A stretch of 28,251 bases of DNA, from the IMG/VR virus record IMGVR_UViG_3300034418_010223, positions 1 to 28,251 of that record, one strand, 5' to 3'. This document shows, one piece after another, positions 11,750-28,251 of this stretch. The notes under the pieces are model-generated. The model saw only the letters and a program-made list of their open reading frames with translations. It ran no database searches and was not told the origin of the DNA. Positions within the stretch are counted from its first letter, which is position 1. Each line of letters begins with the position of its first letter. The position numbers and the translations under genes were made by a program. Origin of the DNA: a virus. Its lineage: Duplodnaviria; Caudoviricetes.

Positions 11750-11952
11750 TACTTCTCGTCAGTGACGTAGACATGCGTGCCAAAGCCGTGGTCTTTTTTG
11801 ACCACGGCCGCGAACATGATCGCAGACATCAAGCTGGAAAACGAGCAGGCGTCTTCTTCGATGGAGGTCAGCTGCAGCCGGGCTTCACCGTCACTGACTG
11901 GAGCGAGAACGTAGAAGCCAGGCGGGTTGTGAACACCGACACCAAAGCGCAC
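11749..11952 (-). CDS. hypothetical protein
   Basis: 67 aa; stop overlaps sigma ATG; extended -10 TG-c-TACATT upstream at 11975-11983. Confidence 0.6.
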   Translation of the reverse strand: MRFGVGVHNPPGFYVLAPVSDGEARLQLTSIEEDACSFSSLMSAIMFAAVVKKDHGFGTHVYVTDEK

Positions 11953-11989
11953 GGATTGAAAAAATGCAGCCCGTAATGTAGCAATGTAG

Positions 11990-12262
11990 TCAGGCTTCCG
12001 TGGATTCTTTCGAGTCTTTTCGGTTTTTCAGTCGCCCTTCTACACGTTTGCGCACGGTTTCGCGCCAGGTCACCTCGTCCTTGGCCAAGGCCTCGTCGTA
12101 AACAGACGACGGCAGCTTGCGCTTCAGCACCTCATAAAGAGCATCACGGATCCAGGCGGTGGGCTTAACCCCTGCCTGGTCCGACAGCTGCATGACCAGG
12201 TCGGCCCGGTTGGGATCCAGCAGGATCTGGAAGTAGCTCTTATTCCCGTGCCGGGTAGCCAT
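11990..12262 (-). CDS. putative ribbon-helix-helix DNA-binding protein
   Basis: 90 aa; YFQILLD beta-strand followed by two helices (..KPTAWIRDALYE..); own promoter with direct repeats. Confidence 0.55.
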   Translation of the reverse strand: MATRHGNKSYFQILLDPNRADLVMQLSDQAGVKPTAWIRDALYEVLKRKLPSSVYDEALAKDEVTWRETVRKRVEGRLKNRKDSKESTEA

Positions 12263-12274
12263 GCGTTGCGCTCG

Positions 12275-12305
12275 TGTGCTACCAATCTTAGCACTGTGCT
12301 ACCAA
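12275..12305. promoter_or_regulatory. operator-like direct repeat TGTGCTACCAA x2 overlapping a - strand extended -10
   Basis: copies at 12275-12285 and 12295-12305; AGTGC-TAAGAT on - strand at 12285-12295. Confidence 0.55.
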
Positions 12306-12580
12306 GCGGCTGGAGCGTCAAAATCCTTACGCCACGCATTGAGCTGCGCCCGGCGCGAAGCGCCGCGTTGCTTGGCACAGCCCTTTCTGACGTAGCGGCT
12401 CCACTCCAAGAACTCAGCAGCGCGCTGAAGGTCAGCCGTGGATGCCAACCGCGTCTCCCGGCTCAAGTATTCCAGGACCAGCTGCCGCCCAGTCTTCGCC
12501 AAGAGAGTAAGCAAGGTCCATTGCTTCCCACAGGCTAGTGCAGTACACCGAGCCAGCTTGGGTTTGAAGCTTGTAGCCAC
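12299..12580 (-). CDS. hypothetical protein (start uncertain)
   Basis: ORF fills the gap between polA and 12262; basic C-terminus. Confidence 0.55.
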   Translation of the reverse strand: MATSFKPKLARCTALACGKQWTLLTLLAKTGRQLVLEYLSRETRLASTADLQRAAEFLEWSRYVRKGCAKQRGASRRAQLNAWRKDFDAPAAW

Positions 12581-12607
12581 CCTCGACGGTGTAGACGGCG
12601 CAATTCA

Positions 12608-14434
12608 TCAGTGAGCCTCGGACCAGCGTTTACCGATTTGGGGCTCAGCCAGTGCCGGGATGTCACCCAACCACTTGGCTTCAGCCGCCTCCATCACTCG
12701 TTTTAGGTGCTCGGCCCACCACTGCGCATGATCCTCACGAACCAGCAACAACAGCTCGTCGTGTACTGCAGCAGCGATCTTCACCACATCCTCACCCTGG
12801 CTCTTGACCTCACCCCAGAGGTTGGCCAGCGCCACCTTGAGGATGGCCGCACCAGCCCCCTGGATCGGTGTGTTGCAACGGACGGTCAGCCGGTTCATGT
12901 CACCGGGCAGGAAGCGCCGGAAGCCGGAGATGGGAATCCGAGTTTCGGCCCACTGGTTGCCCTCGGACTTCTCAGCGTCGCGGGCATTGGCCTGTTGCCA
13001 CATGCGGATTCCGGGGTACGCCGTTAGCCAATCCTCCCGGATTTTCTTGGCCTCCTCCATGGTCATGGTGATGCCAGTCGCGCCGGCGTAGTCACGAAGC
13101 CCCTTGGCACCCGAGCCGTACAGCAGGCCGAAGTTGGCGGACTTAGCCACCTGCCTCTCACACCCCAGCAGATCCGCTGTGAGTTGGTGCAGGTCCTGCC
13201 CAGCCTGGAACGCTTCGGTCATCACCGGATCTTCGGCAACAGCTGCCGCTAGGCGCAATTCCATGCCGGAGAAATCAGCATCAACTAGGAGCCAACCATC
13301 GGGAGCTTCCACACAAGAACGGAAAGCTTCATCACGTGGAATCTGCTGATTATTCGGCTTAATACAGGACATCCGCCCCGTATCTGCGCCCAACTGAAGG
13401 TAACTGGCACGAACAAAGCCATCAGCACCGAGCTTGTCTTGGATGGATTCAACCATCTGGCGGCGCTTCTCAGCCTTCTTCCAGGCCAAGTAGATTTGCA
13501 CCACCTCATGGTCGGCAGCGTAGTTACGCAGCGCTGCCCTAGAGGCGCTGGGTCGTTCTGTCTTCGGATCGACCGGAGGCCGGCCCAGCAGCACCGTGAA
13601 CTTATCGACTAACTGCCGCGGGCTGTTGAGATTGAAGCCAGCCAGTTGCTTGGTGCCCAGCCGCACGGAGCCAGTGGTCTTAGCCCGCAAGTTGAAGGAG
13701 CCGTCTGGATCGCGAGGCAGCTTGTGCTCTTCGGGCAGCGCCTGATCAAGCTGCCGCACGAAGTCTTTGCCCAGCTGCTCGATGTCGTACTCGTAGTCCT
13801 CCCTGACCTTCTGAAGCTTCTCGGCGTTCCAGGGCAGGCCAGTGCGCCACATCTGCGCCATGGCGGGCAACGCCTTGCACTCAATGGCAAACGCTCTGGC
13901 CAGGGCAGCCTTCGCCAACCGCTGATCCAGGACTGGATCGAGCTGGAGCAGCGTGATCACATCCTCGGCCGCATATTTCAGCTGACTGATGGACAGCTCA
14001 CCGCTCCAGTCCGAGCGCTGCTCTTCTTTGTCCAGCTCCTTTTTGAGGTAGCGCTTGGCGACGGCATCGAGGCCGTGCTTCATGTTGGGCACGCCATTGT
14101 TGAGCAGGCGGCTGGCGATCATCGAGCACCGCACACGCCCCTCGACGTAAATGTCGTGCTCTTGCAGCCAGCCCAGATCAAACACAGCGTTATGCGCCAA
14201 CCAAAAGCGTTGGCCATTGCTGAAGAACAAGCGGAGCTTCTTCCAACCCTCGGCATCGAGCTTGAAGCAGTCGATGATCACGATGGTCTTACGCGCCTCA
14301 CAGCCAAGCTGAATGAGGCGCAGCTTCCCCTTCTCAGGTTGGAGCTGGAGCGTTTCTGTGTCGAACGCCAGAGAGACGCAAGTGTTCACAGCGTCGAGAT
14401 GCTCGACGCCGAACAGAACTTTGTAGTCGGCCAT
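12608..14434 (-). CDS. polA: family A DNA polymerase (3'-5' exonuclease + polymerase, no 5'-3' exonuclease)
   Basis: ExoI FDTET, ExoII HNAVFD, ExoIII YAAED; motif A DADFSGMELR; motif B RQVAKSANFGLLYG; motif C VHDEL. Confidence 0.97.
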   Translation of the reverse strand: MADYKVLFGVEHLDAVNTCVSLAFDTETLQLQPEKGKLRLIQLGCEARKTIVIIDCFKLDAEGWKKLRLFFSNGQRFWLAHNAVFDLGWLQEHDIYVEGRVRCSMIASRLLNNGVPNMKHGLDAVAKRYLKKELDKEEQRSDWSGELSISQLKYAAEDVITLLQLDPVLDQRLAKAALARAFAIECKALPAMAQMWRTGLPWNAEKLQKVREDYEYDIEQLGKDFVRQLDQALPEEHKLPRDPDGSFNLRAKTTGSVRLGTKQLAGFNLNSPRQLVDKFTVLLGRPPVDPKTERPSASRAALRNYAADHEVVQIYLAWKKAEKRRQMVESIQDKLGADGFVRASYLQLGADTGRMSCIKPNNQQIPRDEAFRSCVEAPDGWLLVDADFSGMELRLAAAVAEDPVMTEAFQAGQDLHQLTADLLGCERQVAKSANFGLLYGSGAKGLRDYAGATGITMTMEEAKKIREDWLTAYPGIRMWQQANARDAEKSEGNQWAETRIPISGFRRFLPGDMNRLTVRCNTPIQGAGAAILKVALANLWGEVKSQGEDVVKIAAAVHDELLLLVREDHAQWWAEHLKRVMEAAEAKWLGDIPALAEPQIGKRWSEAH

Positions 14435-14485
14435 GGGTGGACTCGGAATGTAGAAAGTTAAACCTGAATTACCGATCTATCGGGA

Positions 14486-14740
14486 TCAGTTGATCTGTGC
14501 GTAGGTCTTCATGAACTCGGCAAAGCCAGGCTCCTCAGGCAGGGGGTAGCCCTCGGTCTCCCAGTCGGACTCGGAGATGCCATCGGGCGACGCCCAGCCG
14601 TACTCAGGATCAGCGTCCCAGCCAGCATCAAGCCGTGCCTGGATCGTGCGATCCTCATCGGCCATCGCGGCCTCGATCTGCGGCAGCAACTCGTAGTAGT
14701 TGGGACGTGTGGTGGACAGGAACAGGTCGTTGTGGGCCAT
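14486..14740 (-). CDS. acidic hypothetical protein
   Basis: likely start MAHNDL at 14740, preceded by GAGG and TGTGC-TACAAT (14764-14774). Confidence 0.7.
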   Translation of the reverse strand: MAHNDLFLSTTRPNYYELLPQIEAAMADEDRTIQARLDAGWDADPEYGWASPDGISESDWETEGYPLPEEPGFAEFMKTYAQIN

Positions 14741-14777
14741 GGATGAACCTCGTTGACGTTGGAATTGTAGCACAGGA

Positions 14778-14942
14778 TCAGACAGTGGTGTGCCTTTTCA
14801 GGAACGCAACCAACAGGCGATGCGCTTCGCCTGCATCAGCGATGAACTGACCTTTGTAATGAAAGCCTTCCCTGTCAACACAAATGACTTCTTCTCCACG
14901 CTCGCTCAGAGTGATCTTGGAGTCAGATTTCTCGTGAGTCAT
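14778..14942 (-). CDS. small hypothetical protein (54 aa, below ORF-track cutoff)
   Basis: MTHEKSD..EEVICVDREGFHYKGQFIADAGEAHRLLVAFLKRHTTV; ATGA overlap with upstream stop. Confidence 0.7.
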   Translation of the reverse strand: MTHEKSDSKITLSERGEEVICVDREGFHYKGQFIADAGEAHRLLVAFLKRHTTV

Positions 14943-15301
14943 ACCGACACCTCAGAGATCAGACGCGCCAGGTAGAAGGTGGCCTTCCTCAGGTCTTCGA
15001 GGCCGCCCTTGTGCTGGTAGCGCCAGACGTACTTCATCTCGCTCCCCTTGAGGAAGCCGAGGAACTGCTCGTGCGGCATGGACGCCTTGATTGCGTCCAG
15101 ACATTCGATGTCGCCCTGCGTGTAGTGACTGGGACGATCCACCGGATCATGGTCCGGGGTATTCGGTGAGGCTGGAACGGTCTGGGCAGGTTGGGTTTGC
15201 TGGAGAGGTATGGCACCAGTCTTCTCCCGGATAGTTGGCGGGTTCCCGATGCTCTTCTGCTGTTGCGCAGCCGACTTGCTGATGCGTTTGATAGCGGCCA
15301 T
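14939..15301 (-). CDS. DUF3310 (SaV-like, T7 gp1.7-related) protein
   Basis: DPVDRPSHYTQGDIECLDAI..GFLKG...KYVWRY..KGG.EDLRKA.FYL; probable start MAAIKR. Confidence 0.9.
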   Translation of the reverse strand: MAAIKRISKSAAQQQKSIGNPPTIREKTGAIPLQQTQPAQTVPASPNTPDHDPVDRPSHYTQGDIECLDAIKASMPHEQFLGFLKGSEMKYVWRYQHKGGLEDLRKATFYLARLISEVSV

Positions 15302-15372
15302 GGTTTTGGGTCCAGTCGTAGAGGTTGTAGGAGAGAAGCAGCCCAAACCAGAAGTAAGGGCTGCGCAGGCTA

Positions 15373-15630
15373 TTAAAAATCGTTCGGGTCCAGCTCCCAC
15401 TCGATCGACGGGTCCTGGCAAAGGCTTTCGAGTTGTTCATCGGTCAGATCAAGAGAGTCGCCATCGACGTAAGGATCCCAGGAGAGCAGGCCGCGGCACT
15501 GCGCGGAGCCGAACTCAGGGGGATCCCAGCGAGTGGCTGGTGCGACTTGCACCATGTCAGGCACGACCGCAACGAACTCGATCCAGTCGGGGAACTTGCG
15601 GATAGCGCTGAGGAATTGAACTTGGGGCAT
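15373..15630 (-). CDS. hypothetical protein
   Basis: 85 aa; V.DMVQV.PAT..DPPEFG.A.C motif; TGTGC-TACGGT promoter at 15656-15666. Confidence 0.75.
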   Translation of the reverse strand: MPQVQFLSAIRKFPDWIEFVAVVPDMVQVAPATRWDPPEFGSAQCRGLLSWDPYVDGDSLDLTDEQLESLCQDPSIEWELDPNDF

Positions 15631-15685
15631 GGGTGGCTCCGGTTGGAACTCCCATACCGTAGCACACGATCAAGGGGGATGGGGG

Positions 15686-15940
15686 TCAGTCCTCCAGGAT
15701 TCCTTGAATCACGGGGAAGTAGTCGGGCGAGTAGCAGCTCAAGATCGTCATGTCCAGCTCGTTGGCGACTCCGACCTGAACAGCCTGTTCAAAGTCCTGC
15801 ACACCCGCCGGCGAATCGTCATAGGCGAACTGCCTGACGGTCTCGGCTTTTCCATCTCTTGCGTAGGCCGTGAACCGCACGACCGCAGCGGTGTTCTCCG
15901 CGTATTCCAACTCCATGTATGTCAGCTGGACGGTTCGCAT
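15686..15940 (-). CDS. hypothetical protein
   Basis: 84 aa from MRTVQL; the longer ORF-track version overlaps neighbouring genes. Confidence 0.65.
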   Translation of the reverse strand: MRTVQLTYMELEYAENTAAVVRFTAYARDGKAETVRQFAYDDSPAGVQDFEQAVQVGVANELDMTILSCYSPDYFPVIQGILED

Positions 15941-15953
15941 CGGCCTGGAGCGC

Positions 15954-16148
15954 TTAGGTGCAGTCTGCTGCTTCTGCGTCTGCTTCGCGGACAGAAGCAA
16001 CAGAGACAAGCGCAGTTTCGCGGTCAGCAACCCCCAGGCAATTAACCACAGCAGCCCAACTGCTACTGCAGCGCACAAGGCAAAGATGCTCGTCGCCAGT
16101 TTCCCGATCCCGGACCACAACCCTGTAAAGATTCTGTTGATGCTCCAT
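15954..16148 (-). CDS. hypothetical protein
   Basis: 64 aa from MEHQQN; tiles the operon without overlap. Confidence 0.55.
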   Translation of the reverse strand: MEHQQNLYRVVVRDRETGDEHLCLVRCSSSWAAVVNCLGVADRETALVSVASVREADAEAADCT

Positions 16149-16173
16149 CTCTTGAAACCAACTGACACAATGG

Positions 16174-16356
16174 GTGAACGGCATTGGACCAATGCGTCCC
16201 AGCTCAGCATTTGCCCTGGAACGGATGCGTAGAGAGCTTGATGGCTGCCGGGACGTAGAGCAACTGCGTTGTATCGCATTGCAGGCCATCCAGCTGTATC
16301 AGCACCAGCAGGAGGTTGTTGCCGAGATGGCCAAGCAAGGCTGGCTCAAACCTTGA
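16174..16356 (+). CDS. NblA-like small helical protein (putative)
   Basis: 54-60 aa; F.L.R......EQ.......L......EM.K..W spacing resembles the phycobilisome degradation adaptor NblA. Confidence 0.45.
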   Translation: MNGIGPMRPSSAFALERMRRELDGCRDVEQLRCIALQAIQLYQHQQEVVAEMAKQGWLKP

Positions 16357-16603
16357 CGGTTGCGAGTTTGTTGAAGAGAAAGGCGACAAGTCCCTCGAAT
16401 TGCCGCCGATCCATTCCACCGCCCACAAAAGAATAGGCGTCCCTCACGAGTTGGTTGTAGCCCTGGGCATCGAGCTTGGTAGCTGGTGCGGCCTCACTGA
16501 TGCACTTGCGGATCACTTCAGAGCGGCTGACGTTATGAACGGCAGCTTGAGCATCGAGCGCGGCGATGGTCGGTTCTTCGAGACGGAGCTTGATCTCGCG
16601 CAC
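16346..16603 (-). CDS. CopG/ribbon-helix-helix DNA-binding protein
   Basis: GTG start; REIKLRL....AALDAQA....SRSEVIR is an RHH signature; TGTGC-TAGTAT at 16630-16640. Confidence 0.8.
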   Translation of the reverse strand: MREIKLRLEEPTIAALDAQAAVHNVSRSEVIRKCISEAAPATKLDAQGYNQLVRDAYSFVGGGMDRRQFEGLVAFLFNKLATVKV

Positions 16604-16645
16604 TACATAAAATGTTTTAGGTACACACCATACTAGCACACTATT

Positions 16646-16801
16646 GTGGCTTACGAACCAGCCTGGCGCGTCGAGGATGAGCGTCGTATCGAGTGGATTG
16701 AAAAGCTGTACCGGCTGGATGGCCGCCACCACGACAGCCACCCAAAGCACGCCATCTACACCGGGCTAGTGGAGAAGTACGGGCCTATCCCTTGGAAGTA
16801 G
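16646..16801 (+). CDS. small hypothetical protein (51 aa, not in ORF track)
   Basis: MAYEPAWRVEDERRIEWIEKLYRLDGRHHDSHPKHAIYTGLVEKYGPIPWK; His-rich motif, phage-like codon usage. Confidence 0.7.
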   Translation: MAYEPAWRVEDERRIEWIEKLYRLDGRHHDSHPKHAIYTGLVEKYGPIPWK

Positions 16802-16829
16802 GCCGCTGAGTGTCCCAAGTGCGGGACAC

Positions 16830-17783: not shown

Positions 17784-17975
17784 TTAGTTGTTTAGCGCCT
17801 ACGCCTGCCTCGCCGCTGTCAGGCTGTCGCGGGCAGGCCCATACGCTAGCACTGGGTTCAGGCGGCAACAACCGAAACCTGTAGTGCATTTAAATCGAAC
17901 AAGCTGTAAGTAACACGTAGACATCTGTATACGTGCTCGGTTAACATTGTTAACGTCAGGCTGTTCGCAAGAACA

Positions 17976-18005
17976 AAGGGAGGCGGAGCTACGGCTCCGC
18001 CTTTC
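17976..18005. terminator. strong hairpin, probable terminator
   Basis: AGGCGGAGC-TACG-GCTCCGCCT (17981-18002); lies directly after a - strand stop at 18011. Confidence 0.6.
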
Positions 18006-18010
18006 TGCTG

Positions 18011-18206: not shown

Positions 18207-18213
18207 CCGGCGG

Positions 18214-20679
18214 TTAGCTGCCTTCGACCCAGCGCCAGGCGTCCTCCATCACCTCTTGGGTCGATTCCACCCTGTGTCCGTCTAAATCCGCGTCAAAACT
18301 CGGATCCGTTCCAGCGCAGTCGTTCTTAACGACAAACGGTTTTGTCGAAAGTCCCGTTTTGTCTAAAGTCCCTGGTGCATCTGTACTAGCGCCCGGACTT
18401 TCGACAAAATCGGACTTTAGACAATCTGGTTTGTCGTTTAAAACCGTTCCAGTCACTGGGTTTTGGACTTTAGACAGACTTTTATTGGACTCCCCCTGCG
18501 CGAGGGGTTTTTTCCTGAACCCTGGAACGGAATAACCCAAGGCGCGGTAGTAAGCCGGCGGACGCCCCTTGAACTTCAACCCAGTGGGTGGATCGCACCG
18601 TTCGATCAGCTTCTGGGCTTCAAGCCGCTGGAGCGCGTACTTGATGGCGCGCTCCTTGTGCTTGCCACCGATGAGGCTGTCGTCCCGAATGTCAGCGAGT
18701 GACTGAGGCAGCTCGGACTCCCGCATCAGGCGAAGCACGTCGAGCATGTAGTCATTTGGACCGTCGCCCTTAATCCGGGTTTTGCACTCCGGCATGGGAC
18801 CGATTCGGTAGGTGTAATCCGGCATGAGGCTGAACACCATCTGCTGCCCCTCCCGGTCATCCCTGGACTTCTCCACCGTGATGATCCGGCTGTTGAACGG
18901 CAGCCCCATCTGCATTAACTCCTTCGCGTCTACCTTCCGCATGTTCCAGGTCTCATCCACAGCGGCTTTGATCGCGCTGGTGCCCCTGAAGCCCCCAGTC
19001 CGGTTGTTGTGGTGGATCACAACAATCGAGCAAGCGGGAAAGTCCACTCCGTTGCGGCGCGCCAGGCGCTTCAAGGGCAGCGCATACTCCCGCCGGTTCT
19101 CCTCATAGGGGTTGGAGTCGTTGCAGCCATCGAGGCTGTCGATCACCACGAGGTCGTACTTGCGCTCCTCCTGCATCCGACAGAAGCGCCGATACCACTG
19201 CATATCCCACTCACCCACCACATCAACCCCACGCTCCACGCCGATGAGGTTGAACTGCCGCTTCGTGATCCGCTCGCTCTGATCACCATTCAGCCAGAGA
19301 CACCGACCGGCTGGAACGTCCACCATCGAGCCGTGAATGTTGAACGGCTTGCCCTGGCTGACGTGCTTGCACAGGGTCATGGCCATGGCGCTCTTACCCG
19401 TACCGCCATCGGCATGAACCAGCAGCAACCACGGCTTGGGCAGGATCCCCGGAATCAGGTACTCAAAGCCGCTGTCATCCAACTGTGAAACATCAGCAGG
19501 CTTCCCACCCTTGCTGCGCTTGAACGTCAGGTGAGCATCAATCAGGCGATCAACAGCCAGAGCACCTTCCCTGGCCCGTCCACCCTGCGCAGCCAGGATC
19601 GTCTTGGCCTGATCGAGGTAAGCGGGATCCTCAATCGTCTCCTCCAGCTCCAGCGCCTTGGAGATCAGCTCCTCAGCGGATAGGTAGTCCTGGCGGAAGC
19701 TGACGGTCGCCGCCTCCGTCTCTTCCACAATCCGTGCACCACTGTTCCCCTGAAATCGCTTGCGGGCTGGGTCGTACTCATCCGCCCACTTGATCAGGCT
19801 GCCAATGCCGTAGCCGCCGTCCGACTTGAAGTTGGCCCAGCGCTCGGCGCACGGATCGCCCTTCTCCCAGTCACCTGCGTAGTCCTGATCCCGCTGGCTC
19901 CACTCACTCCACAGCTCCAGACCACGATCGCCGAGGTCAGCGCTGTGCACCATCGCGCCGATCTTCCACCAGCCGTCTTCCCCCATGCCCTGGGGCGGTA
20001 TGTAGTCCAGGCACTGCTGAACGATCACCTCCCGATCCTCACGAGTGCGGCTGCGATAGGGATCCAGCGCCTTGCTCTTCCTGCTGGAGCGCCCGTCTTT
20101 CTCGGCCTTGGACTCCTGCATGAGGGCGATCAGCCACTGCGGGGCAGGTGGGATAGCTGAGAGGTCGCCAGAGAGGCTGTAGAGGCCCTCAGGAGCGCCG
20201 TAGCGCTCACTGCCGGGGTATTCACCCTCCAGCACCGCCATGCGGCCCCAGAGCACCTCAAAGCCCTGCTTGCCGCCACCCTCATGGCTCACATCCGCCA
20301 CGGTGTCCCAGAGATCCTCTGGAACCATGAACAGGAACTTGGCCGCCGCCTGTTTGGTGCTGGTGCAGCTCGGCCCATTCAGATCCTCACCCCACTTGAG
20401 CTGGAGCGCTCCGAGGTTCGAGTCCACATCGAGCACCACCAGGCCACCCGACCGCTGGCCAGACCACACACCCACCGCCGAATAGATCTCTGGGTACTGA
20501 TCCGCCTTCAGCGCCGACCGGGCTGGTGCGTACTTCTGGTAGCGAGTGGCGGCCATGGGCACCTTGCCGTCACTCGTGTAATCAGGCTTGCCCTCCCGCT
20601 GGATCGTGTAGTCCTTCCGGTAGACGGGGCAGGTGGCCCAGTGAGCAGGCCAAGCCTTAACTGCAGTCTCAAATGACAT
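18214..20679 (-). CDS. primase-helicase: Prim-Pol (AEP) + PriCT-2 + AAA_25/RepA-like helicase
   Basis: SGGLVVLDVD Prim-Pol motif; WWKIGAMVHS..LW.EWS..W..F PriCT-2; Walker A ADGGTGKS; Walker B LVVIDSL; IHHNNR..FRGTSAI; likely start MSFETA. Confidence 0.93.
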   Translation of the reverse strand: MSFETAVKAWPAHWATCPVYRKDYTIQREGKPDYTSDGKVPMAATRYQKYAPARSALKADQYPEIYSAVGVWSGQRSGGLVVLDVDSNLGALQLKWGEDLNGPSCTSTKQAAAKFLFMVPEDLWDTVADVSHEGGGKQGFEVLWGRMAVLEGEYPGSERYGAPEGLYSLSGDLSAIPPAPQWLIALMQESKAEKDGRSSRKSKALDPYRSRTREDREVIVQQCLDYIPPQGMGEDGWWKIGAMVHSADLGDRGLELWSEWSQRDQDYAGDWEKGDPCAERWANFKSDGGYGIGSLIKWADEYDPARKRFQGNSGARIVEETEAATVSFRQDYLSAEELISKALELEETIEDPAYLDQAKTILAAQGGRAREGALAVDRLIDAHLTFKRSKGGKPADVSQLDDSGFEYLIPGILPKPWLLLVHADGGTGKSAMAMTLCKHVSQGKPFNIHGSMVDVPAGRCLWLNGDQSERITKRQFNLIGVERGVDVVGEWDMQWYRRFCRMQEERKYDLVVIDSLDGCNDSNPYEENRREYALPLKRLARRNGVDFPACSIVVIHHNNRTGGFRGTSAIKAAVDETWNMRKVDAKELMQMGLPFNSRIITVEKSRDDREGQQMVFSLMPDYTYRIGPMPECKTRIKGDGPNDYMLDVLRLMRESELPQSLADIRDDSLIGGKHKERAIKYALQRLEAQKLIERCDPPTGLKFKGRPPAYYRALGYSVPGFRKKPLAQGESNKSLSKVQNPVTGTVLNDKPDCLKSDFVESPGASTDAPGTLDKTGLSTKPFVVKNDCAGTDPSFDADLDGHRVESTQEVMEDAWRWVEGS
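18306..18477. repeat. iteron-like direct/inverted repeats, candidate replication origin
   Basis: TTTTGTC(G/T)AAAGTCC at 18340 and 18357; inverted GGACTTT(C/A)GACA at 18395, 18412, 18465. Confidence 0.7.
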
Positions 20680-20790: not shown

Positions 20791-20826
20791 GAACGAGTTC
20801 AAGACCAGCGCGACGAGCGCAACACC

Positions 20827-21417
20827 ATGAAATTCGGTCTTTCAGCCAAAGGAAAAGCCCAAACCGCTCAGAAGGAATCGAGCGGCGGTTACCTGAGCCT
20901 CAAGAACATCAAAGACGGCGAGCCTGCCCGTTTCCACATCGTCAGCGAGGAGCCGCTGGAGTTCTGGCAAGTCTGGGGCGAGTCACCCGATGGCGCGGCC
21001 AAGCCCTTCCGTTTCGTGGAGGAGCCCAGCCCCAGCGACATCGACGCCGAGATGGGTGAGTACACCCGCCGCCTGAACTTCGAGGGCACCGCCCCCGACA
21101 AGGTCGTCTTCAGCCTGGCCTTCTTCGCGTACAACTACGACACCGAGACCATTCAGGTGGTCCAGTTCACCCAGAAAACTCTGATCCGCGAGCTGGACTC
21201 CATCGTCTCGATGGAAGACTACGAAGACCTCACCCAGTGGGACTTCAGCCTGGGACGTGACGGCAAGACCGCCCCGATCAGCTACAGCCTCCGCGCCGTA
21301 CCGATCAAAAAAGGAGCCCGCGATCAGATCGACGCCGCCTGGGCTAAAGCACAGGAAGACGGCTACGACATCAAGCAGCTCCTAGTAGGCGGCAACCCCT
21401 TCGGCGGCGCTAAGTAA
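20827..21417 (+). CDS. putative single-stranded DNA-binding protein
   Basis: 196 aa; GGYL.L..IKDG, KPFRF, F..YNY....IQV....QKT, WDF.L.R.G, GGNPF end; divergent from primase, next to exonuclease. Confidence 0.7.
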   Translation: MKFGLSAKGKAQTAQKESSGGYLSLKNIKDGEPARFHIVSEEPLEFWQVWGESPDGAAKPFRFVEEPSPSDIDAEMGEYTRRLNFEGTAPDKVVFSLAFFAYNYDTETIQVVQFTQKTLIRELDSIVSMEDYEDLTQWDFSLGRDGKTAPISYSLRAVPIKKGARDQIDAAWAKAQEDGYDIKQLLVGGNPFGGAK

Positions 21418-21427
21418 TAACTAAACA

Positions 21428-21463: not shown

Positions 21464-21493
21464 AGGTATTATTAGTTTGGGAACGTATATCTA

Positions 21494-21670
21494 ATGACCC
21501 TCCCACCCACTGAAACCAACTTCCTAGACGACGGGAGCGTTGAAGTCCGGGTAGGCGACCAGATCGGCTGGGTCACCAGCGCCCACCTGATCGAAACCAA
21601 AGTCCACCAACTCCAGCAGGCCTGGATCGAAGAACACACGAAGGGCGGAGAGGCCCTCATCAATGACTGA
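21494..21670 (+). CDS. small hypothetical protein (58 aa, not in ORF track)
   Basis: MTLPPTETNFLDDGSVEVRVGDQIGWVTSAHLIETKVHQLQQAW..; overlaps exonuclease start; promoter upstream. Confidence 0.7.
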   Translation: MTLPPTETNFLDDGSVEVRVGDQIGWVTSAHLIETKVHQLQQAWIEEHTKGGEALIND

Positions 21671-22475
21671 GAACACTTGTACTAGCGCCCAGGACGCATT
21701 AGCGGGGCTGCGCAAGTGGAGGCTGGTTCGTCACGACTCCGAGGAAGGTCGCACCTACAGCCACCCCGAAACGGGCGAAATTTTCCATTCAGTAACCCGG
21801 ATCCTGGGGGCCACAGCACCCGATTGGCAAAAACAAGCCCTTTCAAGGTGGCTGGAACGCCCTGGCTCGACGCAGGAACGCGACCTCGCAGCGAACAGGG
21901 GTACTACCGCCCACAACAGCGCGGAGTATCTCCTCAAGGTCGGAGCGAAACTGGCAAGGCAGACCGCTAACAAGAGAGGCGTCTGGAAGGCCCGTGAGGA
22001 CGGCCTGGAGCGTTGCCCGCCCGCCATTACCAAATGGGGCCTTGAAAGGGCCTTAGAGGGCGCCCCAAGGGTCTCCTGGCACGCATCAGGCTATGCAAGG
22101 GGCTTAAGGAGCTGGATCGTTGAGAACGTGACGGCTATCCACGCGGTGGAATTCAGCGGCTTTCACCCCGGGGGCTGGGCTGGAACGTGCGATGCCCTCG
22201 TGGATGTAGCTGGCACGCTGACGATCTGCGACTGGAAGACAAGCCAGAACGCCCGAAGCGAAGAAATGCTCTCCAACTACATCGACCAACTAGGCGCTTA
22301 CAGCCTTCAGCTCAAACACCTCACCGGAATCAAGCCAGAGGCTGGGGCGATCGTGGTAGCGCGCCGCTCTGGAGCGCCTCAGGTGCGTCTCCTTTCAGAG
22401 CTGGAACTGCGAGGAGCCGAAACGCGCTTTCAAGACAGGGCTATCCGGTATTTCGAGGATTTGGCCCATTCATAG
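21663..22475 (+). CDS. PD-(D/E)XK exonuclease (lambda-exo/Cas4/MGME1-like)
   Basis: SVTRIL, RGT.AH, AGTCDAL, ICDWKTS, QL.AY motifs. Confidence 0.9.
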   Translation: MTENTCTSAQDALAGLRKWRLVRHDSEEGRTYSHPETGEIFHSVTRILGATAPDWQKQALSRWLERPGSTQERDLAANRGTTAHNSAEYLLKVGAKLARQTANKRGVWKAREDGLERCPPAITKWGLERALEGAPRVSWHASGYARGLRSWIVENVTAIHAVEFSGFHPGGWAGTCDALVDVAGTLTICDWKTSQNARSEEMLSNYIDQLGAYSLQLKHLTGIKPEAGAIVVARRSGAPQVRLLSELELRGAETRFQDRAIRYFEDLAHS

Positions 22476-22576
22476 GTCGAGTCTCACAAGACCCAGCCCC
22501 ATTCATGTGATGTAGAATGGCTGGAACGGCGAGGTAGCAGCCTCCCGTTCCCGGACAACCGAAGCACCCGATTGCC

Positions 22577-23053
22577 ATGAGCACTCTAAACGAGAAGCCT
22601 CCCGTCGAGTATCTCTGGGAGAAGTACAGCTACAACCCGTTGACTGGCGCGTTACATCGCCGCGATAACGATCGCGTGCTACGCGGGAACCATTCAACGC
22701 GCAGTCACCAACTTTCCATTCATGGCAAGGCCCGCCATCCCTACGCGGTGGTGATTTGGGCATTCATGACTGGAGCGTGGCCCATTCATGAAATCGACCA
22801 CATCGACCGCGACCACTACAACCACCGTTGGTGGAACCTACGGGAGCTGACCAATAGGCGAAACAAGCTGAACACGCGCAGGGCCAGGGCTGGCGCGTAT
22901 CCGGACGGCAGCCGTTGGCAGGCCCGGATTCGGCATGGCGGCAAAAACCACTACCTAGGGAGCTTTGTCACCCAGGCCGAGGCTCAGGCTGCCTACGCGG
23001 CAGCCTTGGCTGAGCTGGAGCGGCCGAAGCACCTGATCACTGCGCAGGTTTGA
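22577..23053 (+). CDS. HNH homing endonuclease with C-terminal AP2 domain
   Basis: EIDHIDRD..N....NLRE.T...N; WQARIRHGGK.HYLGSF.T..EA..AY. Confidence 0.93.
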   Translation: MSTLNEKPPVEYLWEKYSYNPLTGALHRRDNDRVLRGNHSTRSHQLSIHGKARHPYAVVIWAFMTGAWPIHEIDHIDRDHYNHRWWNLRELTNRRNKLNTRRARAGAYPDGSRWQARIRHGGKNHYLGSFVTQAEAQAAYAAALAELERPKHLITAQV

Positions 23054-23180
23054 CCAGCTGGAACGTTAATTGATCGCCCGGCTGCCCATCCTCTTGCCAT
23101 TGCTTAAGCAGGTTCTGAAGCTGCTTCGGCGTTAGGCGAATGATCAGGGAACCGCTCAGCACGGCAACAGTGGGATTCAT
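23037..23180 (-). CDS. small hypothetical protein (47 aa)
   Basis: MNPTVAVLSGSLIIRLTPKQLQNLLKQWQEDG..; fills the gap downstream of 23223-23576. Confidence 0.45.
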   Translation of the reverse strand: MNPTVAVLSGSLIIRLTPKQLQNLLKQWQEDGQPGDQLTFQLVKPAQ

Positions 23181-23222
23181 TGGCTGGATCGTTAAGTGTT
23201 TGCAGGTTGAGTCGCGCGAGAC

Positions 23223-23576
23223 TTACGCCCATGCGCTGTGAGGCTGGCCCGTTCCGCGCCAGCGCTTTACGGTGTCCAGGGATTTGATCAGCGCGGCGAC
23301 GTCTTTAGCCTCACCGGCTGCGCACGCGACGGTTAAGCGGTGAACTAGCAGGGCTTCCACTTCTTCAGGGGCTGGAGCGGTTAGTTCATCGGCGGCTGGC
23401 CCGTGATCGCAGGCTTCCATTTCCGCGTGTGCCGCTTCAATGTCGCGGTAAGCGCTGGAGCGGCTGACACCGTGGCGTGCGCTGATCATGGTTGCAACAC
23501 GGGCCTGCGGTAGCCCGGCTTCCATCAGCGAACGCGCGTAACTCTGGCGCTGCTGAATTTCTATCTGTGTGGCCAT
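23223..23576 (-). CDS. HTH protein paralogous to the putative TerS
   Basis: start MATQIE; ARHGVSRSSAYRDI helix-turn-helix; TGTGA-TACGGT promoter at 23630-23640. Confidence 0.7.
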   Translation of the reverse strand: MATQIEIQQRQSYARSLMEAGLPQARVATMISARHGVSRSSAYRDIEAAHAEMEACDHGPAADELTAPAPEEVEALLVHRLTVACAAGEAKDVAALIKSLDTVKRWRGTGQPHSAWA

Positions 23577-23640
23577 GGGGTGCTCAGTGGCTGGGACGCT
23601 GGAGCGGCTGCTACCGCCCAAGCCTCTCTACCGTATCACA

Positions 23641-23685
23641 GAAATGGGGATTTTGGAGATTTTGGGAGAAATGGGGATTTTGGGA
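23641..23685. repeat. direct repeat GAAATGGGGATTTTGG x2 (GATTTTGG x3) between divergent promoters
   Basis: copies at 23641-23656 and 23668-23683. Confidence 0.8.
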
Positions 23686-23763
23686 CGTGGGGGCTGGCGC
23701 CCCCACAAACAGCCGATCCTGTGATACGATGGCAGGGTTCCACCACACCCATAGGAGAACACC

Positions 23764-23892
23764 GTGATTGTGATTGTCAGGGCTGGAGCGTGGGAGCTGA
23801 TTCCCGCGCCGCAGGATCCCACCGCAGCGTGGGAGCTTGCCGACAAGCTCACCGCCGAAACTGGCGCGCCTCACACCGTAGCTAAGGTGTGA
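23764..23892 (+). CDS. small hypothetical protein (42 aa)
   Basis: TGTGA-TACGAT promoter (23720-23730), AGGAG RBS, GTG start; MIVIVRAGAWELIPAPQDPTAAWELADKL.. Confidence 0.65.
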   Translation: MIVIVRAGAWELIPAPQDPTAAWELADKLTAETGAPHTVAKV

Positions 23893-23930
23893 TACAATAA
23901 ACCCGCTACCCCACCTTAAGGAGCAACCCA

Positions 23931-24536
23931 ATGCAACTAGCAACCGCCACGCTTGACTGCGAGCGTTTCGATTATGTGGCTGGATCGTGGCTTTTTTGGT
24001 CTGAGCACCATGCAGGTGCGGCATCGCCTGGCTATGCCAGGCTCAGCCGCTACCTGCAGGAATACCGTTTCGACCCTGGCGCGTGTTTCAGCGGCTGGGA
24101 ATCGCTGAGCGATTCCGCCAGGGAGATCTACCGCGGCTGGTGCGAGCGGGAGTCTGTGGATTGCGACTACGACTCGCTGCGCTACGTGCTGGAGCGTGAG
24201 GACTGGGATTGTGACGACGACTGCGTTTCGGAGCTGCTGGAGCGTTACGAGCACGCCGACCCTTCCGAGTCTGGGCTCTGTAATTACGAGCAGAGCGACT
24301 GGGTCAACCTTGATCAGTGCTACACGAGAGACCTGATCCGTTTCTACGATCGCAATGAAGACTCTGTGTTGCACTGGGCCGATGAAGCGTGCGGCGCGTT
24401 CGGCTGCACAAGCCGGCTGCAACTGCTGGAGGGTGACACGGTCGAAACGCCCGACGACATGAAGACCGCGCTGGTCAACCACGCGATGACCTACCTGGCG
24501 CGTTCGGTTCTCGCTGCGCTCGAAGCGAGAGCCTGA
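23931..24536 (+). CDS. acidic hypothetical protein (early-type)
   Basis: 201 aa, D/E/W/Y/C rich; TGTGA-TACAAT promoter (23888-23898) and AAGGAG RBS. Confidence 0.8.
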   Translation: MQLATATLDCERFDYVAGSWLFWSEHHAGAASPGYARLSRYLQEYRFDPGACFSGWESLSDSAREIYRGWCERESVDCDYDSLRYVLEREDWDCDDDCVSELLERYEHADPSESGLCNYEQSDWVNLDQCYTRDLIRFYDRNEDSVLHWADEACGAFGCTSRLQLLEGDTVETPDDMKTALVNHAMTYLARSVLAALEARA

Positions 24537-24630
24537 CGGCTCTCGCAACACAGCCCCTTCTCTGCTACAGTACAGATCAAGCGAGCCGAGAGCCCGGCTC
24601 GCATCCTTCCCCACCCATAGGAGAAAACCC

Positions 24631-24981
24631 ATGGCAAACCTCCACCAGCCCCGCATCATCGAAACCACTACCGTTCGCAGTGGTGGCACGCAAGAACCCA
24701 CCACCGAGCACGTCACAGAACGGATGTTCCGGATTGAAGAATCCGACACGCTCTGGGTTGGCCTGAACGGGATCAGCCTGGAACGTGGCAAGTTCGGCGG
24801 TGATCGCGACGTCCTGCGGGTCGACGCCTACAGCGGCACGCTGTTGGCCGATGCGTTGATTGAAAACCTCAGGATTCAGGCCTCGCTGGCGAAGGATGAG
24901 GCTGCTGGTTCGCTCAGTCGTCGCCAGGCTGCCGAGTTCGTAGAGCGTGCGGCAGCAGCGCTGCAGCTGGTCGCCGCCTAG
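24631..24981 (+). CDS. hypothetical protein
   Basis: 116 aa; AGGAG RBS; TG-c-TACAGT upstream; terminator downstream. Confidence 0.75.
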   Translation: MANLHQPRIIETTTVRSGGTQEPTTEHVTERMFRIEESDTLWVGLNGISLERGKFGGDRDVLRVDAYSGTLLADALIENLRIQASLAKDEAAGSLSRRQAAEFVERAAAALQLVAA

Positions 24982-25006
24982 TGAGGCTCGCTGCGCTCGC
25001 CTCACG

Positions 25007-25034
25007 GCCCACCGCTCAGGTGGGCTTTTTTGTT
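25007..25034 (+). terminator. intrinsic terminator
   Basis: GCCCACC-GCTCA-GGTGGGC followed by TTTTTTGTT. Confidence 0.85.
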
Positions 25035-25077
25035 GCTGTGCTTTTGGGTAGATTGAACCTAAATCAGCCGGCGCGTT

Positions 25078-25485
25078 GTGAGTGAGTCTGAAGAACTGAA
25101 AGGAACCCAGAGACCCTTCGGTAAAAGGAACCCAGACGCCGTGATTGAAGCGCGGCAGAAAAGGCTGTACAAAGCCCAGCTCAGTGGCCTGCCTTGCCGT
25201 CAGCTGGTCTTAGAGCACGCTGAACGTGAAAGCATCGCAGAAACCACGGCCTGGCGTGACTGGCGAGCGGTGTGCGCAATGAACCAGCAAGATTTCGAGC
25301 TGGAACGTGAGACTATACTTGCACGTCTCATGTCCATGAGGTTCCGAGCCGTGAACCAAGCGCTGCGCAAGAACCAGTTGACATCAGCGGCTCAGCTGAT
25401 GGACGCTATCGGCAGGGCAGCAGGAGAGGGTCAGCAGGCGCTAGAGATTAACGTTCCCAACCTGAACATCAAGATCGAAGATTGA
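25078..25485 (+). CDS. putative terminase small subunit
   Basis: 135 aa; N-terminal HTH (..ETTAWRDW), helical core, C-terminal beta-strand PNLNIKIED; upstream of TerL. Confidence 0.65.
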   Translation: MSESEELKGTQRPFGKRNPDAVIEARQKRLYKAQLSGLPCRQLVLEHAERESIAETTAWRDWRAVCAMNQQDFELERETILARLMSMRFRAVNQALRKNQLTSAAQLMDAIGRAAGEGQQALEINVPNLNIKIED

Positions 25486-25488
25486 GCA

Positions 25489-25523
25489 CAAAAAAGGCCC
25501 CGCAGTTGCGGGGCTTTTGTTTT
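25489..25523. terminator. bidirectional intrinsic terminator
   Basis: A-run, GCCCCGC-AGTT-GCGGGGC stem-loop, TTTTGTTTT; between convergent genes. Confidence 0.85.
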
Positions 25524-25531
25524 GCTGTTGA

Positions 25532-25735
25532 TCAGTAGCGAGAGACTGTAGGAGTTACGTCTTTTACTGATTCGATGAAGTAAAGGCCAGGCTGATGGAG
25601 CTGGTTTGTGCGTGCTGTCGCCATGGCCTCGGCTTGCTCTGCTGATTCTGCCTGCACGTTGTAAGAGAACCCGATGATCGCACCGCTGGGGCGGTTGCTG
25701 CGATCGATGAGGCTGACAACAACTTTGAAGAGCAT
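25532..25735 (-). CDS. hypothetical protein
   Basis: 67 aa; V.AESAEQAE..A motif; CGTGC-TAGGGT promoter at 25763-25773. Confidence 0.7.
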   Translation of the reverse strand: MLFKVVVSLIDRSNRPSGAIIGFSYNVQAESAEQAEAMATARTNQLHQPGLYFIESVKDVTPTVSRY

Positions 25736-25945
25736 GGCCTTGGGTGAACCGTTTGCCCCTTTACCCTAGCACGGGATTGGCGGGATCGGGGCGGCCGAAG
25801 CGGGGGTGGTGGTCGGTTTCTTGTGTGGCACAGTGGCGGGTAGGGAACCTACTGATACAACTGGCTTCTTGTCTATCCTAGCACAGGGGGGAGGGGTTCA
25901 TTCTGTGCTACGCTAAAACAAGCCCCCCAAAAATACAGCATCACA

Positions 25946-26131
25946 ATGTTGGCTATTGTGCTACTCGCCCAAACAGCAGTGCCCTGGAGCGGCCAGGGCC
26001 TCTGCCCACCGGGCTACTACCGCTACGGCAACTACTGCACCCCCACCACCCGAAGCACCCCCACGCGCATCACCACAACCTGCACCCAACCCACCAAGTA
26101 CACCACCACCTGCCTGGAGCGCCGCAACTAA
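25946..26131 (+). CDS. small Cys-rich protein with hydrophobic N-terminus
   Basis: MLAIVLLAQ..CPPGYYRYGNYCTP; TGTGC-TACGCT promoter at 25904-25914; TAATG coupling to next ORF. Confidence 0.6.
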   Translation: MLAIVLLAQTAVPWSGQGLCPPGYYRYGNYCTPTTRSTPTRITTTCTQPTKYTTTCLERRN

Positions 26132-26493
26132 TGGGCTACCGCAGACGCAGTTGGGGCTGGCGCACCACCTGGCGCACCCGCACCCGAAAGACCGGCCCCA
26201 GCCTGGTGCGCGGCCACTACCGCCGCATGTCAAACGGAAAGATCGTCTGGGTAAGTCCGCACATGCGCCGAAACTCATCCCTTCCGGTGTACCGCCAACC
26301 CACCAGCGTCTCAACCCTGCGCATAGTTTCTCCAGACCCAGTTCGCCCCGTCCCCGAACCGATCACGTATCAGCCACCCCAACAGACTCGCCCCGCGCCA
26401 CAACGCCTCGACCCCACCGACCACACCGCCTACATCATCTCTTCTGTGCTAGCCCTTGTATGCTTAGCCGGACTCCTCGCCCTCCTCACCTAA
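26131..26493 (+). CDS. Arg-rich protein with C-terminal transmembrane helix
   Basis: VRGHYRR..NGKIVWVSPHMR motif; YIISSVLALVCLAGLLALLT tail; abuts TerL ATG. Confidence 0.6.
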   Translation: MGYRRRSWGWRTTWRTRTRKTGPSLVRGHYRRMSNGKIVWVSPHMRRNSSLPVYRQPTSVSTLRIVSPDPVRPVPEPITYQPPQQTRPAPQRLDPTDHTAYIISSVLALVCLAGLLALLT

Positions 26494-27741
26494 ATGCCTG
26501 CTGGAACGGCAGAACTAACGCTACGAAAAGCGCAAGGCGCAGTATTCAACAGCCGCGAGCGCTTTAGGGTCCTTGTAGCAGGCCGCCGTTTCGGCAAATC
26601 GTATCTCTCCTGCATCGAACTCCTACGCGGTGCCATCGACAAACCGGGCGAAACCTTCTTCTATTGCGCCCCCACCTACCGCATGGCGAAAGACATCGCC
26701 TGGAAGGTCCTCAAACAACTGGTGCCCAAAGCGTGGATAAAAGCGAAAAACGAAACGGACCTCAAGCTCGAACTCGTAAATGGATCAACTATCGAGCTGA
26801 AAGGAACCGAAAACGCCATGGCGCTTCGCGGTCGCAGTTTGAGCGGCGTGGTGCTGGACGAAGCTGCCTTTATGGACCCCGGCGTCTGGTTCGAAGTGCT
26901 CCGCCCCGCGCTAGCCGACAAGCAGGGCTGGGCCTTATTCATTTCAACGCCGGATGGAACGGCGAGCTGGTTTTACGACCTGTGGTGCTACGCGGAAGAA
27001 GACCCAAGCGGATTATGGAAGCGCTGGTCTTATACCACGATTGAAGGCGGCAACGTCCCAGCCGAGGAAGTCGAAGCCGCCCGCTCCCAACTCGACCCCC
27101 GCACCTTTCGCCAAGAGTTCGAAGCCTCCTTCGAGAACCTTTCCGGCCTCGTCGCCGTCAACTTCTCCGAAGACAACATCGACAAAACCGTCAAGGACAT
27201 CCCCGAACTCACCCTTTACCTCGGCTTGGACTTTAACATTGATAATATGAGCTGTGTTTGCGCAGTTCGAGTAGAAGATGAACTCCACATCTTCGACGAA
27301 ATTGTTATGGTCAACTCGACAACATGGGAAATGGTCGAGGCCATCAACGAAAAATTCGGCCTGGAGCGTCGTAAGGACGTATCACCCGATCCGACTGGTG
27401 CAGCCAGGAAGACAGCTGGTGTTGGTTTAACGGACCACGCTATTCTTCGCAAGGGCGGCATAAAGGTAAGCAGTCCCCGCTCTCCCTGGAAAGTCCGGGA
27501 CAAGGTGAACTGTGTCAACACGGCTGTATTAGACAGTAATGACGTCCGGCGTCTCAAGATTCACCCCCGTTGCAAGGAAACGATTAAATCCTTGCGCACC
27601 CTTACCTACGACGCCAACGGGATGCCCAACAAGAAGCTTGGGGTAGACCATTTGTTCGATGCTCTCGGCTACCTATGTCTGATGAAATTCAACTTAAACA
27701 AAAGCACCCAATCGGGCGGCACTAGCTATCGAGTTTGGTAA
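26494..27741 (+). CDS. terL: terminase large subunit
   Basis: Walker A AGRRFGKS; Walker B LRGRSLSGVVLDEAAF; ISTP; nuclease GLDFN and DHLFDALGY. Confidence 0.96.
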   Translation: MPAGTAELTLRKAQGAVFNSRERFRVLVAGRRFGKSYLSCIELLRGAIDKPGETFFYCAPTYRMAKDIAWKVLKQLVPKAWIKAKNETDLKLELVNGSTIELKGTENAMALRGRSLSGVVLDEAAFMDPGVWFEVLRPALADKQGWALFISTPDGTASWFYDLWCYAEEDPSGLWKRWSYTTIEGGNVPAEEVEAARSQLDPRTFRQEFEASFENLSGLVAVNFSEDNIDKTVKDIPELTLYLGLDFNIDNMSCVCAVRVEDELHIFDEIVMVNSTTWEMVEAINEKFGLERRKDVSPDPTGAARKTAGVGLTDHAILRKGGIKVSSPRSPWKVRDKVNCVNTAVLDSNDVRRLKIHPRCKETIKSLRTLTYDANGMPNKKLGVDHLFDALGYLCLMKFNLNKSTQSGGTSYRVW

Positions 27742-27791
27742 TCAACTCGTGCTGCTGTAAGCTGCTACTAACAAAATCCAGGTCGATAGCC

Positions 27792-28251
27792 GTGTATCCA
27801 GGCCCTGCGTTTAGCAATACAGCGTATTCCGGGTATCTGTCTGGGTCAACGGCAACCGACGACCCGTTTTACCGGGACAACGACGTCGCAGCGATGTCGG
27901 ACGGCTGGCGAATCATGGAAGCCGTAACGAACGGCAGCGACTGGATCCGTCTAAACGCCCCGATCTACCTGCCTCAAGAGCCCCGCGAGGACGAGGAAGC
28001 CTGGAAAGCGCGTATTCGGCGCAGCGTCCTCTCACCATTCACGATCCGGATCATCGAGAACGCCGCCGGCCTAGTCCTGCGCCGTCCAATCCGTGTGCTT
28101 GGGGACGAGTACTGGCAAGATTTTGCCCGTAACGTCGACGGTCTGGGCTCTTCGATAAACGAATACGCCCGTCGCGCCATGATTTCGACGCTGACCTACG
28201 GGCACAGCGCCATTTTGGTCGACTACCCCAACGCCCCTGGAGCGCTGACTT
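27792..28251 (+). CDS. portal protein (DUF4055-like), truncated by window end
   Basis: open frame from GTG: W..M.AV..G...IR....YLPQEPRED.EAW..RIRRSVL.P; follows TerL. Confidence 0.85.
   Translation, partial: MYPGPAFSNTAYSGYLSGSTATDDPFYRDNDVAAMSDGWRIMEAVTNGSDWIRLNAPIYLPQEPREDEEAWKARIRRSVLSPFTIRIIENAAGLVLRRPIRVLGDEYWQDFARNVDGLGSSINEYARRAMISTLTYGHSAILVDYPNAPGALT

Follow-up and report, generated by a model that had tools for sequence, protein, structure and literature searches.

The primases T7 gp4 and DnaG are of the TOPRIM type, read a short site of 3-5 nt on the lagging-strand template and start their primers with purines. Their fold is unrelated to that of the archaeo-eukaryotic primases (AEPs), and what they share with the system proposed here is a primase-helicase that reads a short site. 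The subject is the word CTGGARCG in a 28,251-nt stretch of DNA (IMG/VR record IMGVR_UViG_3300034418_010223, positions 1 to 28,251; hereafter the window), which is the whole 28-kb contig of a tailed phage. The word is a real, lineage-wide signal at the DNA level, and we regard it, with moderate confidence, as the probable priming site of the phage's own AEP primase-helicase.

Two AEP systems offer comparisons. In NrS-1, a phage AEP primase with a helix bundle is likewise fused to a helicase, and priming is sequence-specific, with an 8-nt site; the enzyme is reported to recognise TTTGGTTA and GTG(G/A) (GTG/GTGG/GTGA) (PMC8718748). It differs in being the replicative polymerase and in reading another word, whereas the present phage has a separate PolA and its priming is predicted from sequence. 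The portions of that source used here describe no genome-wide one-strand layout with a reversed pair at the origin (PMC8718748). In RSF1010, RepB' is reported to prime at ssiA and ssiB, on opposite strands, with RepA as the helicase (PMC8567376). An AEP primase, a RepA-type helicase and opposed sites at an origin (a putative one in the phage) with inverted repeats are shared with the phage, but the ssi sites are 40-nt hairpins, one per strand, and there is no lagging-strand priming; here, a word of 7-8 nt is repeated 40-70 times round the genome, and a single protein combines primase and helicase.

A polar word in the window and across the phage family

By exact search, CTGGARCG occurs 37 times in the window (33 copies on the top strand, 4 on the bottom), where dinucleotide shuffles lead to an expected mean of 2.76 (at most 6 among 100 shuffles). 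The initial annotation of this DNA had listed about 32 top-strand and 4 bottom-strand copies. Every coordinate was exact, with one top-strand copy, at 13205, overlooked. The absence of the word from 1-11.8 kb was also confirmed; the regional restriction that had been read from it applies to the window, but not to relatives, which carry the word genome-wide. The copies and the elements beside them are as follows (coordinates, strand, feature):

11898..28244, plus: CTGGARCG (CGYTCCAG on the bottom strand), 33 copies; the degenerate relatives CTGGATCG and CTGGCRCG are also present
13825 and 14002, minus: two reversed copies inside the family A DNA polymerase gene
18307..18314, minus: reversed copy at the left edge of an inverted repeat, at a family-conserved position; predicted leading-strand priming site
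18322..18444, no strand: inverted repeat with 50-nt arms (folding z -6.24), a likely origin
18445..18452, minus: reversed copy adjoining the right arm of the inverted repeat
18522..18529, plus: copy placed back to back with the first reversed copy, 77 nt to its right; the layout recurs in relatives
18214..20679, minus: primase-helicase of 821 aa, with AEP Prim-Pol, PriCT_2 helix bundle, AAA_25 RepA/DnaB-like helicase and a C-terminal helical domain

The related CTGGATCG is skewed as well (11:2, top to bottom, as in all ratios below unless stated). Among the 33 top-strand copies, 15 are read in sense, 14 in antisense, where all three frames are represented, and 4 lie between genes. Ten of the 33 encode Leu-Glu-Arg, the other 5 sense copies lying in other frames, and coding repeats can mimic such a skew, so a bias of codons, amino acids or mutation deserves mention. 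It is hardly credible here, and the data refute it. When the codons of 33 hand-picked window genes were shuffled synonymously 2000 times, 29 top-strand copies stood against 5.95 +/- 2.02 expected (maximum 14), and 4 bottom-strand copies against 1.65. The word occurs in all frames and on both gene strands, and as a G-rich word it is enriched on a C-rich strand, against that strand's skew, which indicates selection. A codon-controlled test admitted only words that were in excess in genes of either orientation; a form of CTGGARCG ranked first in 5/5 family genomes and in 0/10 controls, two of which have almost no minus-strand genes. The earlier suggestions that Leu-Glu-Arg codons do not suffice and that a cis-acting DNA signal is present are thus supported by the shuffling and by the ranking test. 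In 71 pooled family sequences the word is degenerate, (C)TGGANC(G), with TGG and the C at position 7 fixed and positions 1, 5, 6 and 8 graded; the skew is largely lost when TGG or position 7 is altered.

The polarity extends through a family estimated at about 1200 terL-matching stretches in IMG/VR, with no close isolate among the annotated phages searched. Over 79 terL relatives (71-81% identity), oriented by terL and counted without deduplication, the ratio is 436:25. The top strand is favoured in 12/12 family contigs of 28-49 kb (37-59% GC), regardless of gene direction; long contigs give 17:4, 23:4, 18:3, 18:2, 66:14, 19:3, 10:1 and 34:4, and a second contig of the window's own phage (40.7 kb, 99.98% identical) gives 38:8. 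The copies of the 66:14 contig (G005:C164, terL 81% identical) are spread round its 49 kb; this contig sits within a 10.6-Mb bacterial metagenome-assembled genome, probably through a binning error. Members of low GC content (35-39%) mainly use the form TGGATCG, with 204:18 unique contexts in 39 loci. Their long contigs carry CTGGARCG at only 6:2, 7:5 and 7:1, with TGGANCG at 40:12, 49:21 and 41:14. In complete circular family genomes there is no switch of polarity round the circle, and the gaps between copies have medians of 345-753 nt and reach 2.4-7.8 kb at most. Since relatives carry the word genome-wide, the empty tail region of the window is not general; our guess is that frequent exchange of tail modules emptied it.

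Outside the family the pattern is absent or weak in the phages sampled. Ten whole cyanophage records give 6:5, 1:0, 5:3, 7:7, 0:0, 0:0, 0:0, 0:0, 10:5 and 6:3 (the 0:0 records being Syn5, P60, P-SSP7 and MED4-117), and S-EIVl gives 1:3 in 40 of its 79 kb. Strong polarity was thus found in 0/11 unrelated cyanophages, a small sample whose hosts are not identical to the family's. Alteromonas phage ZP6 has no such word. A paired-motif scan of 1/64 parts of viral contigs, with 80 long loci, brought up no second family. Its strongest skew (65:0) came from L427:4984-8386, an unrelated 38%-GC viral contig in which a long Ser/Gly/Thr repeat protein mimics motif skew by coding alone. Among the open-access entries listed, no relevant account of the word, or of strand-biased primase sites in cyanophages, was found.

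Reversed copies at an inverted repeat in the primase gene

The tail of the primase gene contains an inverted repeat bordered on each side by a reversed copy, which accounts for two of the four, and this arrangement is a family trait. In 33 non-redundant primase genes, the gene body carries 142 copies on the usual strand against 28.8 expected and 44 on the other strand against 34.1. In the final 300 nt there are 38 copies on the reversed strand against 11.4 expected, and just upstream of the repeat there are 36 on the usual strand against 4.4. A significant inverted repeat (z>=3) is present in 24/33 of the gene tails and in 3/33 control segments. At 38% GC and at 58% GC the order is the same: a plus site is followed after about 75-138 nt by a reversed site, and another reversed site comes about 126 nt further on. 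The reading frame of the reversed copies differs between clades, and the DNA of the inverted repeat encodes a disordered tail of the primase (residues 718-749 and 784-806, predicted local distance difference test (pLDDT) <50). This repeat, within the final 300 nt of the gene for the AEP primase-helicase, is likely to be an origin. The word, then, lies on one template strand round the replicon and is reversed at this putative origin, which is the arrangement expected of a primase site.

Strand composition bears on the direction of the fork. Fourfold sites are enriched in C and A on the top strand (in G+T on the bottom strand), with the same sign in 9/9 genomes. In the sense direction, GC skew is -0.19 to -0.51 in 5/6 groups for the top-strand gene exo and positive in 9/12 cases for the bottom-strand genes primase and polA. 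Family-wide, neighbouring early genes differ unusually strongly at these sites, with about -0.4 for exo and about +0.2 for primase/polA (e.g. window 12608-27741). The asymmetry suggests that one strand stays single for long periods, as happens in strand-displacement or rolling-circle replication. As a general rule, an exposed single strand loses C, and because the top strand is C-rich, the bottom strand would be the exposed template. From this it would follow that the fork runs leftward with the early genes, that the template word is CGYTCCAG and that leading-strand priming falls to the reversed copies at the origin. The composition makes this direction, and CGYTCCAG as the word that is read, the probable one. 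A mirror model, in which the fork runs rightward and the template word is CTGGARCG, accounts for the arrangement of sites just as well; it was set aside after the composition results as the less probable of the two.

The mechanism that we propose runs as follows. The inverted repeat would act as the origin, from which an SF4-type helicase would travel 5'-3' on the exposed bottom strand and carry the fork leftward. The primase would read CGYTCCAG on that strand every few hundred bases and so start the complementary strand, and the reversed copies at the origin, one or two in number, would prime the leading strand. Primers may begin with the purines inside the word (GGARCG), which is the most speculative step.

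The enzyme that would read the word is encoded at the same locus. Among 78 homologues of the primase-helicase, PF09250 matches 13/78, and PF08707 and PF13481 match 78/78; the window protein itself matches PriCT_2 and a PHROG primase profile. D84, D86 and E141 are invariant in 43 primase sequences, and in AEP motif II the usual His is replaced throughout by Lys (K114). The only PDB match of the protein profile is RSF1010 RepA (PDB 1g8y, E 8.8e-5). The phage thus appears to encode an AEP primase that has its catalytic acidic residues together with a helix bundle, as a priming site of this kind would need.

The primase-half and helicase-half trees disagree (16 representative rows), so the two halves have recombined between clades and provide natural swaps. 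AEP group N0 relaxes base 8 of the word with 7/7 helicase partners (G fraction 0.17-0.37, early arm), and other AEP groups favour G. Within the same helicase group, one pairing gives 5:24 vs 10:8 (Fisher p 0.01). The per-locus median G fraction at base 8 is 0.36 in N0 (n=64) vs 0.57 in N2 (n=8); the backbones of N2 and N0 phages, when compared, have terL mostly 95-100% identical. A distant primase (P0078) has no locus. These data are suggestive of a base-8 preference that tracks the AEP domain and not the helicase half, among loci that are related. This preference bears on the idea that the same primase-helicase uses the word in double-stranded form, for loading or restart, binding it through an origin-binding domain and not priming there. 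Such a site would share the origin layout and the restriction to one lineage, and the predicted model has a folded C-terminal domain (residues 641-713) that could serve; a preference that follows the N-terminal AEP group speaks against it, and we consider it very unlikely.

A number of observations weigh against a priming site. Most primases are reported to read triplets only (PMC8567376). No significant inverted repeat is found in 9/33 primase tails, and L395 and L397 are without origin copies. The AEP call rests on the profile matches, because a search with the structure model gave DnaB, RepA and RecA, all helicase-type folds, as the only folds among the matches listed. The co-variation with the domain is modest: the largest pairing with the same helicase is not significant (126:214 vs 16:16, p 0.18), one N2 locus has a G fraction of 0.43, and distinct homologous sites change 7 vs 1 as predicted (p 0.07); the loci are related and a host effect is not cleanly separable. 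There are site-free gaps of 5-8 kb in tail regions, and a simple priming model does not predict the density peak at the 3' end of exo described below. Among the control phages, KBS-S-2A, S-CBS2 and S-CBS4 have a mild, about twofold, top-strand excess of single variants.

A priming site for the phage primase is nevertheless favoured, because reversed copies flank the putative origin, the polar word is absent or weak in other cyanophages and not polar in the sampled hosts, and base 8 appears to co-vary with the AEP domain. For the same reasons, of three uses that the initial annotation had proposed, priming by the phage Prim-Pol in one-directional replication appears to fit best. If this is true, the family gives a sequence-level handle on the choice of start sites by AEP primase-helicases, with natural domain swaps and a predicted origin, and primase specificity, origin and fork direction would be readable from sequence alone.

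The density peak, a second word and the terminase

Further features lie to the right of the primase gene:

21852..24785, plus: density peak with 16 copies of CTGGARCG
21663..22475, plus: PD-(D/E)XK exonuclease (exo); both polar words peak at its 3' end
22466..22788, plus: cluster holding 5 of the 11 CCATTCA copies in the window; this strict word is the second polar one
25078..25485, plus: probable small terminase subunit (a lead; 0.88 to the T5 terS cluster), conserved upstream of terL
26494..27741, plus: large terminase subunit (terL), followed by the portal gene

The peak had been noticed at 21.8-24.8 kb, and the exact search places it there. Throughout the family it has its centre in the final 500 nt of exo, with 4.6-5.3 copies per kb against about 1 elsewhere, and decays rightward. 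In three groups that share the peak, exo and terL are 3.3, 4.2 and 5.6 kb apart. The peak's own distance from terL is about 4, 4.5-5 and 6 kb, yet it stays fixed to exo, and so the peak does not keep the spacing to terL expected of a pac signal. In the L147-L151 subgroup, terL is only 32% identical; the polarity is kept, though weaker (5:0 in L150), as is the origin layout. Three loci have terL just 421 nt past exo and probably belong to this subgroup. A directional packaging signal, another of the proposed uses, is therefore disfavoured: the peak is not tied to terL, and the polarity outlasts a change of terminase.

CCATTCA(T) is strict, with 11:0 in the window and 392:45 family-wide, and its copies cluster at the 3' end of exo in either GC class. 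One contig (G003:C1, 9660-9743) has a 9-nt tandem array of this word. The cluster is a candidate nick, pac or DNA-end signal, and the coincidence with the peak suggests that a DNA end, pac or nick site lies there. Four sequencing runs compared with the region yielded contigs and showed no ends.

Nick sites of T5, phiKMV and tf are likewise short words on one strand, independent of gene direction, and are reported to be strict and fewer (14 in tf); with its degenerate consensus CTGGARCG differs from them, and CCATTCA is the closer analogue (PMC3517423). This leads to the question of whether another phage enzyme, such as a nickase of the T5, tf or phiKMV type, the exonuclease or the terminase, reads CTGGARCG. 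The peak on the exonuclease gene and the T5-like terS lead would agree with that. However, the grading at positions 1, 5, 6 and 8 is not the strict consensus of a T5/tf-type virion nick site, the peak does not track terL, polarity and origin layout are kept in L147-L151, and the base-8 preference varies among loci that share an exo cluster and a terL cluster (0.41 vs 0.52). Another enzyme is therefore improbable as the reader of the word. An account that combines the two words, in which the family writes a 7-8-nt AEP-primase word on one strand, reverses it at an origin in the primase tail and retunes it by domain swaps, with CCATTCA marking a processing site, is plausible but put forward tentatively.

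Picocyanobacterial hosts, Chi and the phage setting

The sigma factor of the phage has its best matches in Synechococcus phages S-CBS3 and S-CBS1, the exonuclease matches mostly Synechococcus phages, and 24/24 runs among those listed are freshwater metagenomes. On these grounds we infer a picocyanobacterial host. A Pfam scan of 53/114 small open reading frames from two low-GC members gave no host marker; from GC content, a host of the Prochlorococcus type might be guessed for these members. The presence of RecC in picocyanobacteria has been reported (PMC5101192). It was found in 21/251 sampled genomes of the cyanobacterial phylum and in 5/5 closed high-GC picocyanobacterial genomes. Identity between picocyanobacterial RecC types is 16-57%. 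At least three very divergent types (L103, L109 vs L104, L300 vs L110-L112) share only 16-31% with one another, which points to separate origins and possibly to distinct Chi words. The residues implicated in Chi contact in E. coli RecC are not consistently kept in picocyanobacterial RecC and are uninformative on the word.

If the word were the Chi of the picocyanobacterial RecBCD, the phage could use it, in the manner of P1 and LLS, against degradation and for RecA loading, at a right-entered end or on a rolling-circle tail. The likely hosts do encode RecC, although the host of this phage is itself a conclusion from sequence matches. GCTGGARC resembles GCTGGTGG and the Pseudomonas word GCTGGCGC, and its top-strand orientation relative to terL is the same as in LLS (20:3) and MD8 (32:0), as reported (PMC12315714). 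With P1, LLS and MD8 the phage shares tens of top-strand octamers relative to the terminase, a local peak and, probably, a RecBCD host (PMC12315714). A Chi site would explain the local peak at the exo end, with its rightward decay, better than a priming site does; a top-strand Chi would, we reason, be in the active orientation for the rolling-circle tail of a leftward fork.

In P1, LLS and MD8, however, the word is a proven host Chi, whereas here it is non-polar in the hosts. High-GC picocyanobacterial genomes hold many copies, largely as codons, and in five host samples the enrichment is only 1.05-1.5-fold over expectation, with no consistent polarity. In 420-kb samples with clear replichores, leading:lagging counts are 34:47 (G134) and 29:26 (G216), inside the spread of other words. 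The whole chromosome of G254 has 60 copies of TGGATCG, divided 31:29 in our own tally from dnaN and so without polarity. In G202 the 120 copies of CTGGAACG equal the control count, with at most 50 on the leading strand (100 of the 120 listed). Raw counts of 63:125 (G282) and 96:99 (G334) come from genomes with unresolved replichores and carry no leading or lagging assignment. CTGGARC has a raw lagging-strand lean (128:220 in G134, 199:291 in G282) that, with codons controlled for, lies in the range shown by other words. The host-chromosome skew check that had been proposed was thus run, and it found no consistent polarity in the picocyanobacterial samples. The KOPS motif of FtsK, as a reading, was dropped because the word is not polar on host replichores. 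GTGAGGG, tried as a polar host control (74:17 in G134), was also dropped, since 34 of its copies came from two windows. No strongly polar word of any kind emerged in the host samples, so that the host negative is not decisive; a functional Chi may moreover be unpolarised in Vibrio and weak in H. influenzae, according to the part of the literature consulted (PMC8022716).

Other evidence against Chi comes from the phages. The word is absent or weak in the 11 other cyanophages, and the spaced reversed copies round the inverted repeat of the primase gene would remain unexplained. RecC is highly divergent, yet family members at 37% and 58% GC share one core word. The family also has its own exonuclease and an SSB-like gene, and Chi-rich lambdoids are mostly without such modules. 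The suggested Chi reading gains from the peak, which looks related to a DNA end, but host chromosomes show no polarity. We consider a Chi site rather unlikely, and the likeness may be incidental if CGYTCCAG is the template. Judged on genomic features, the word appears to have those that can be tested for a primase site and to lack two of those that can be tested for Chi. If it were Chi, it would be the first Chi word for a cyanobacterial RecBCD, none having been found in the literature searched.

The remaining genes of the window are arranged in three blocks, listed here with two of their members:

1-9.3 kb, plus: tail genes
9.4-20.7 kb, minus: lysin, ThyX, sigma factor, PolA and primase-helicase
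12608..14434, minus: family A DNA polymerase with 3'-5' exonuclease
right of 20.7 kb, mostly plus: single-stranded DNA-binding (SSB)-like gene, exonuclease, HNH, small genes, terminase and portal
20827..21417, plus: conserved 196-aa protein, possibly a gp32-like SSB (a weak lead; score 0.85, with the gp32 label on 18% of the matched cluster)

A single-sequence model of the SSB-like protein (pLDDT 37) gave no usable fold. By the ribbon-helix-helix (RHH) and KilA-N genes there is a repeated palindromic element (16794-16835 and 17381-17410), which is likely to be a repressor operator.

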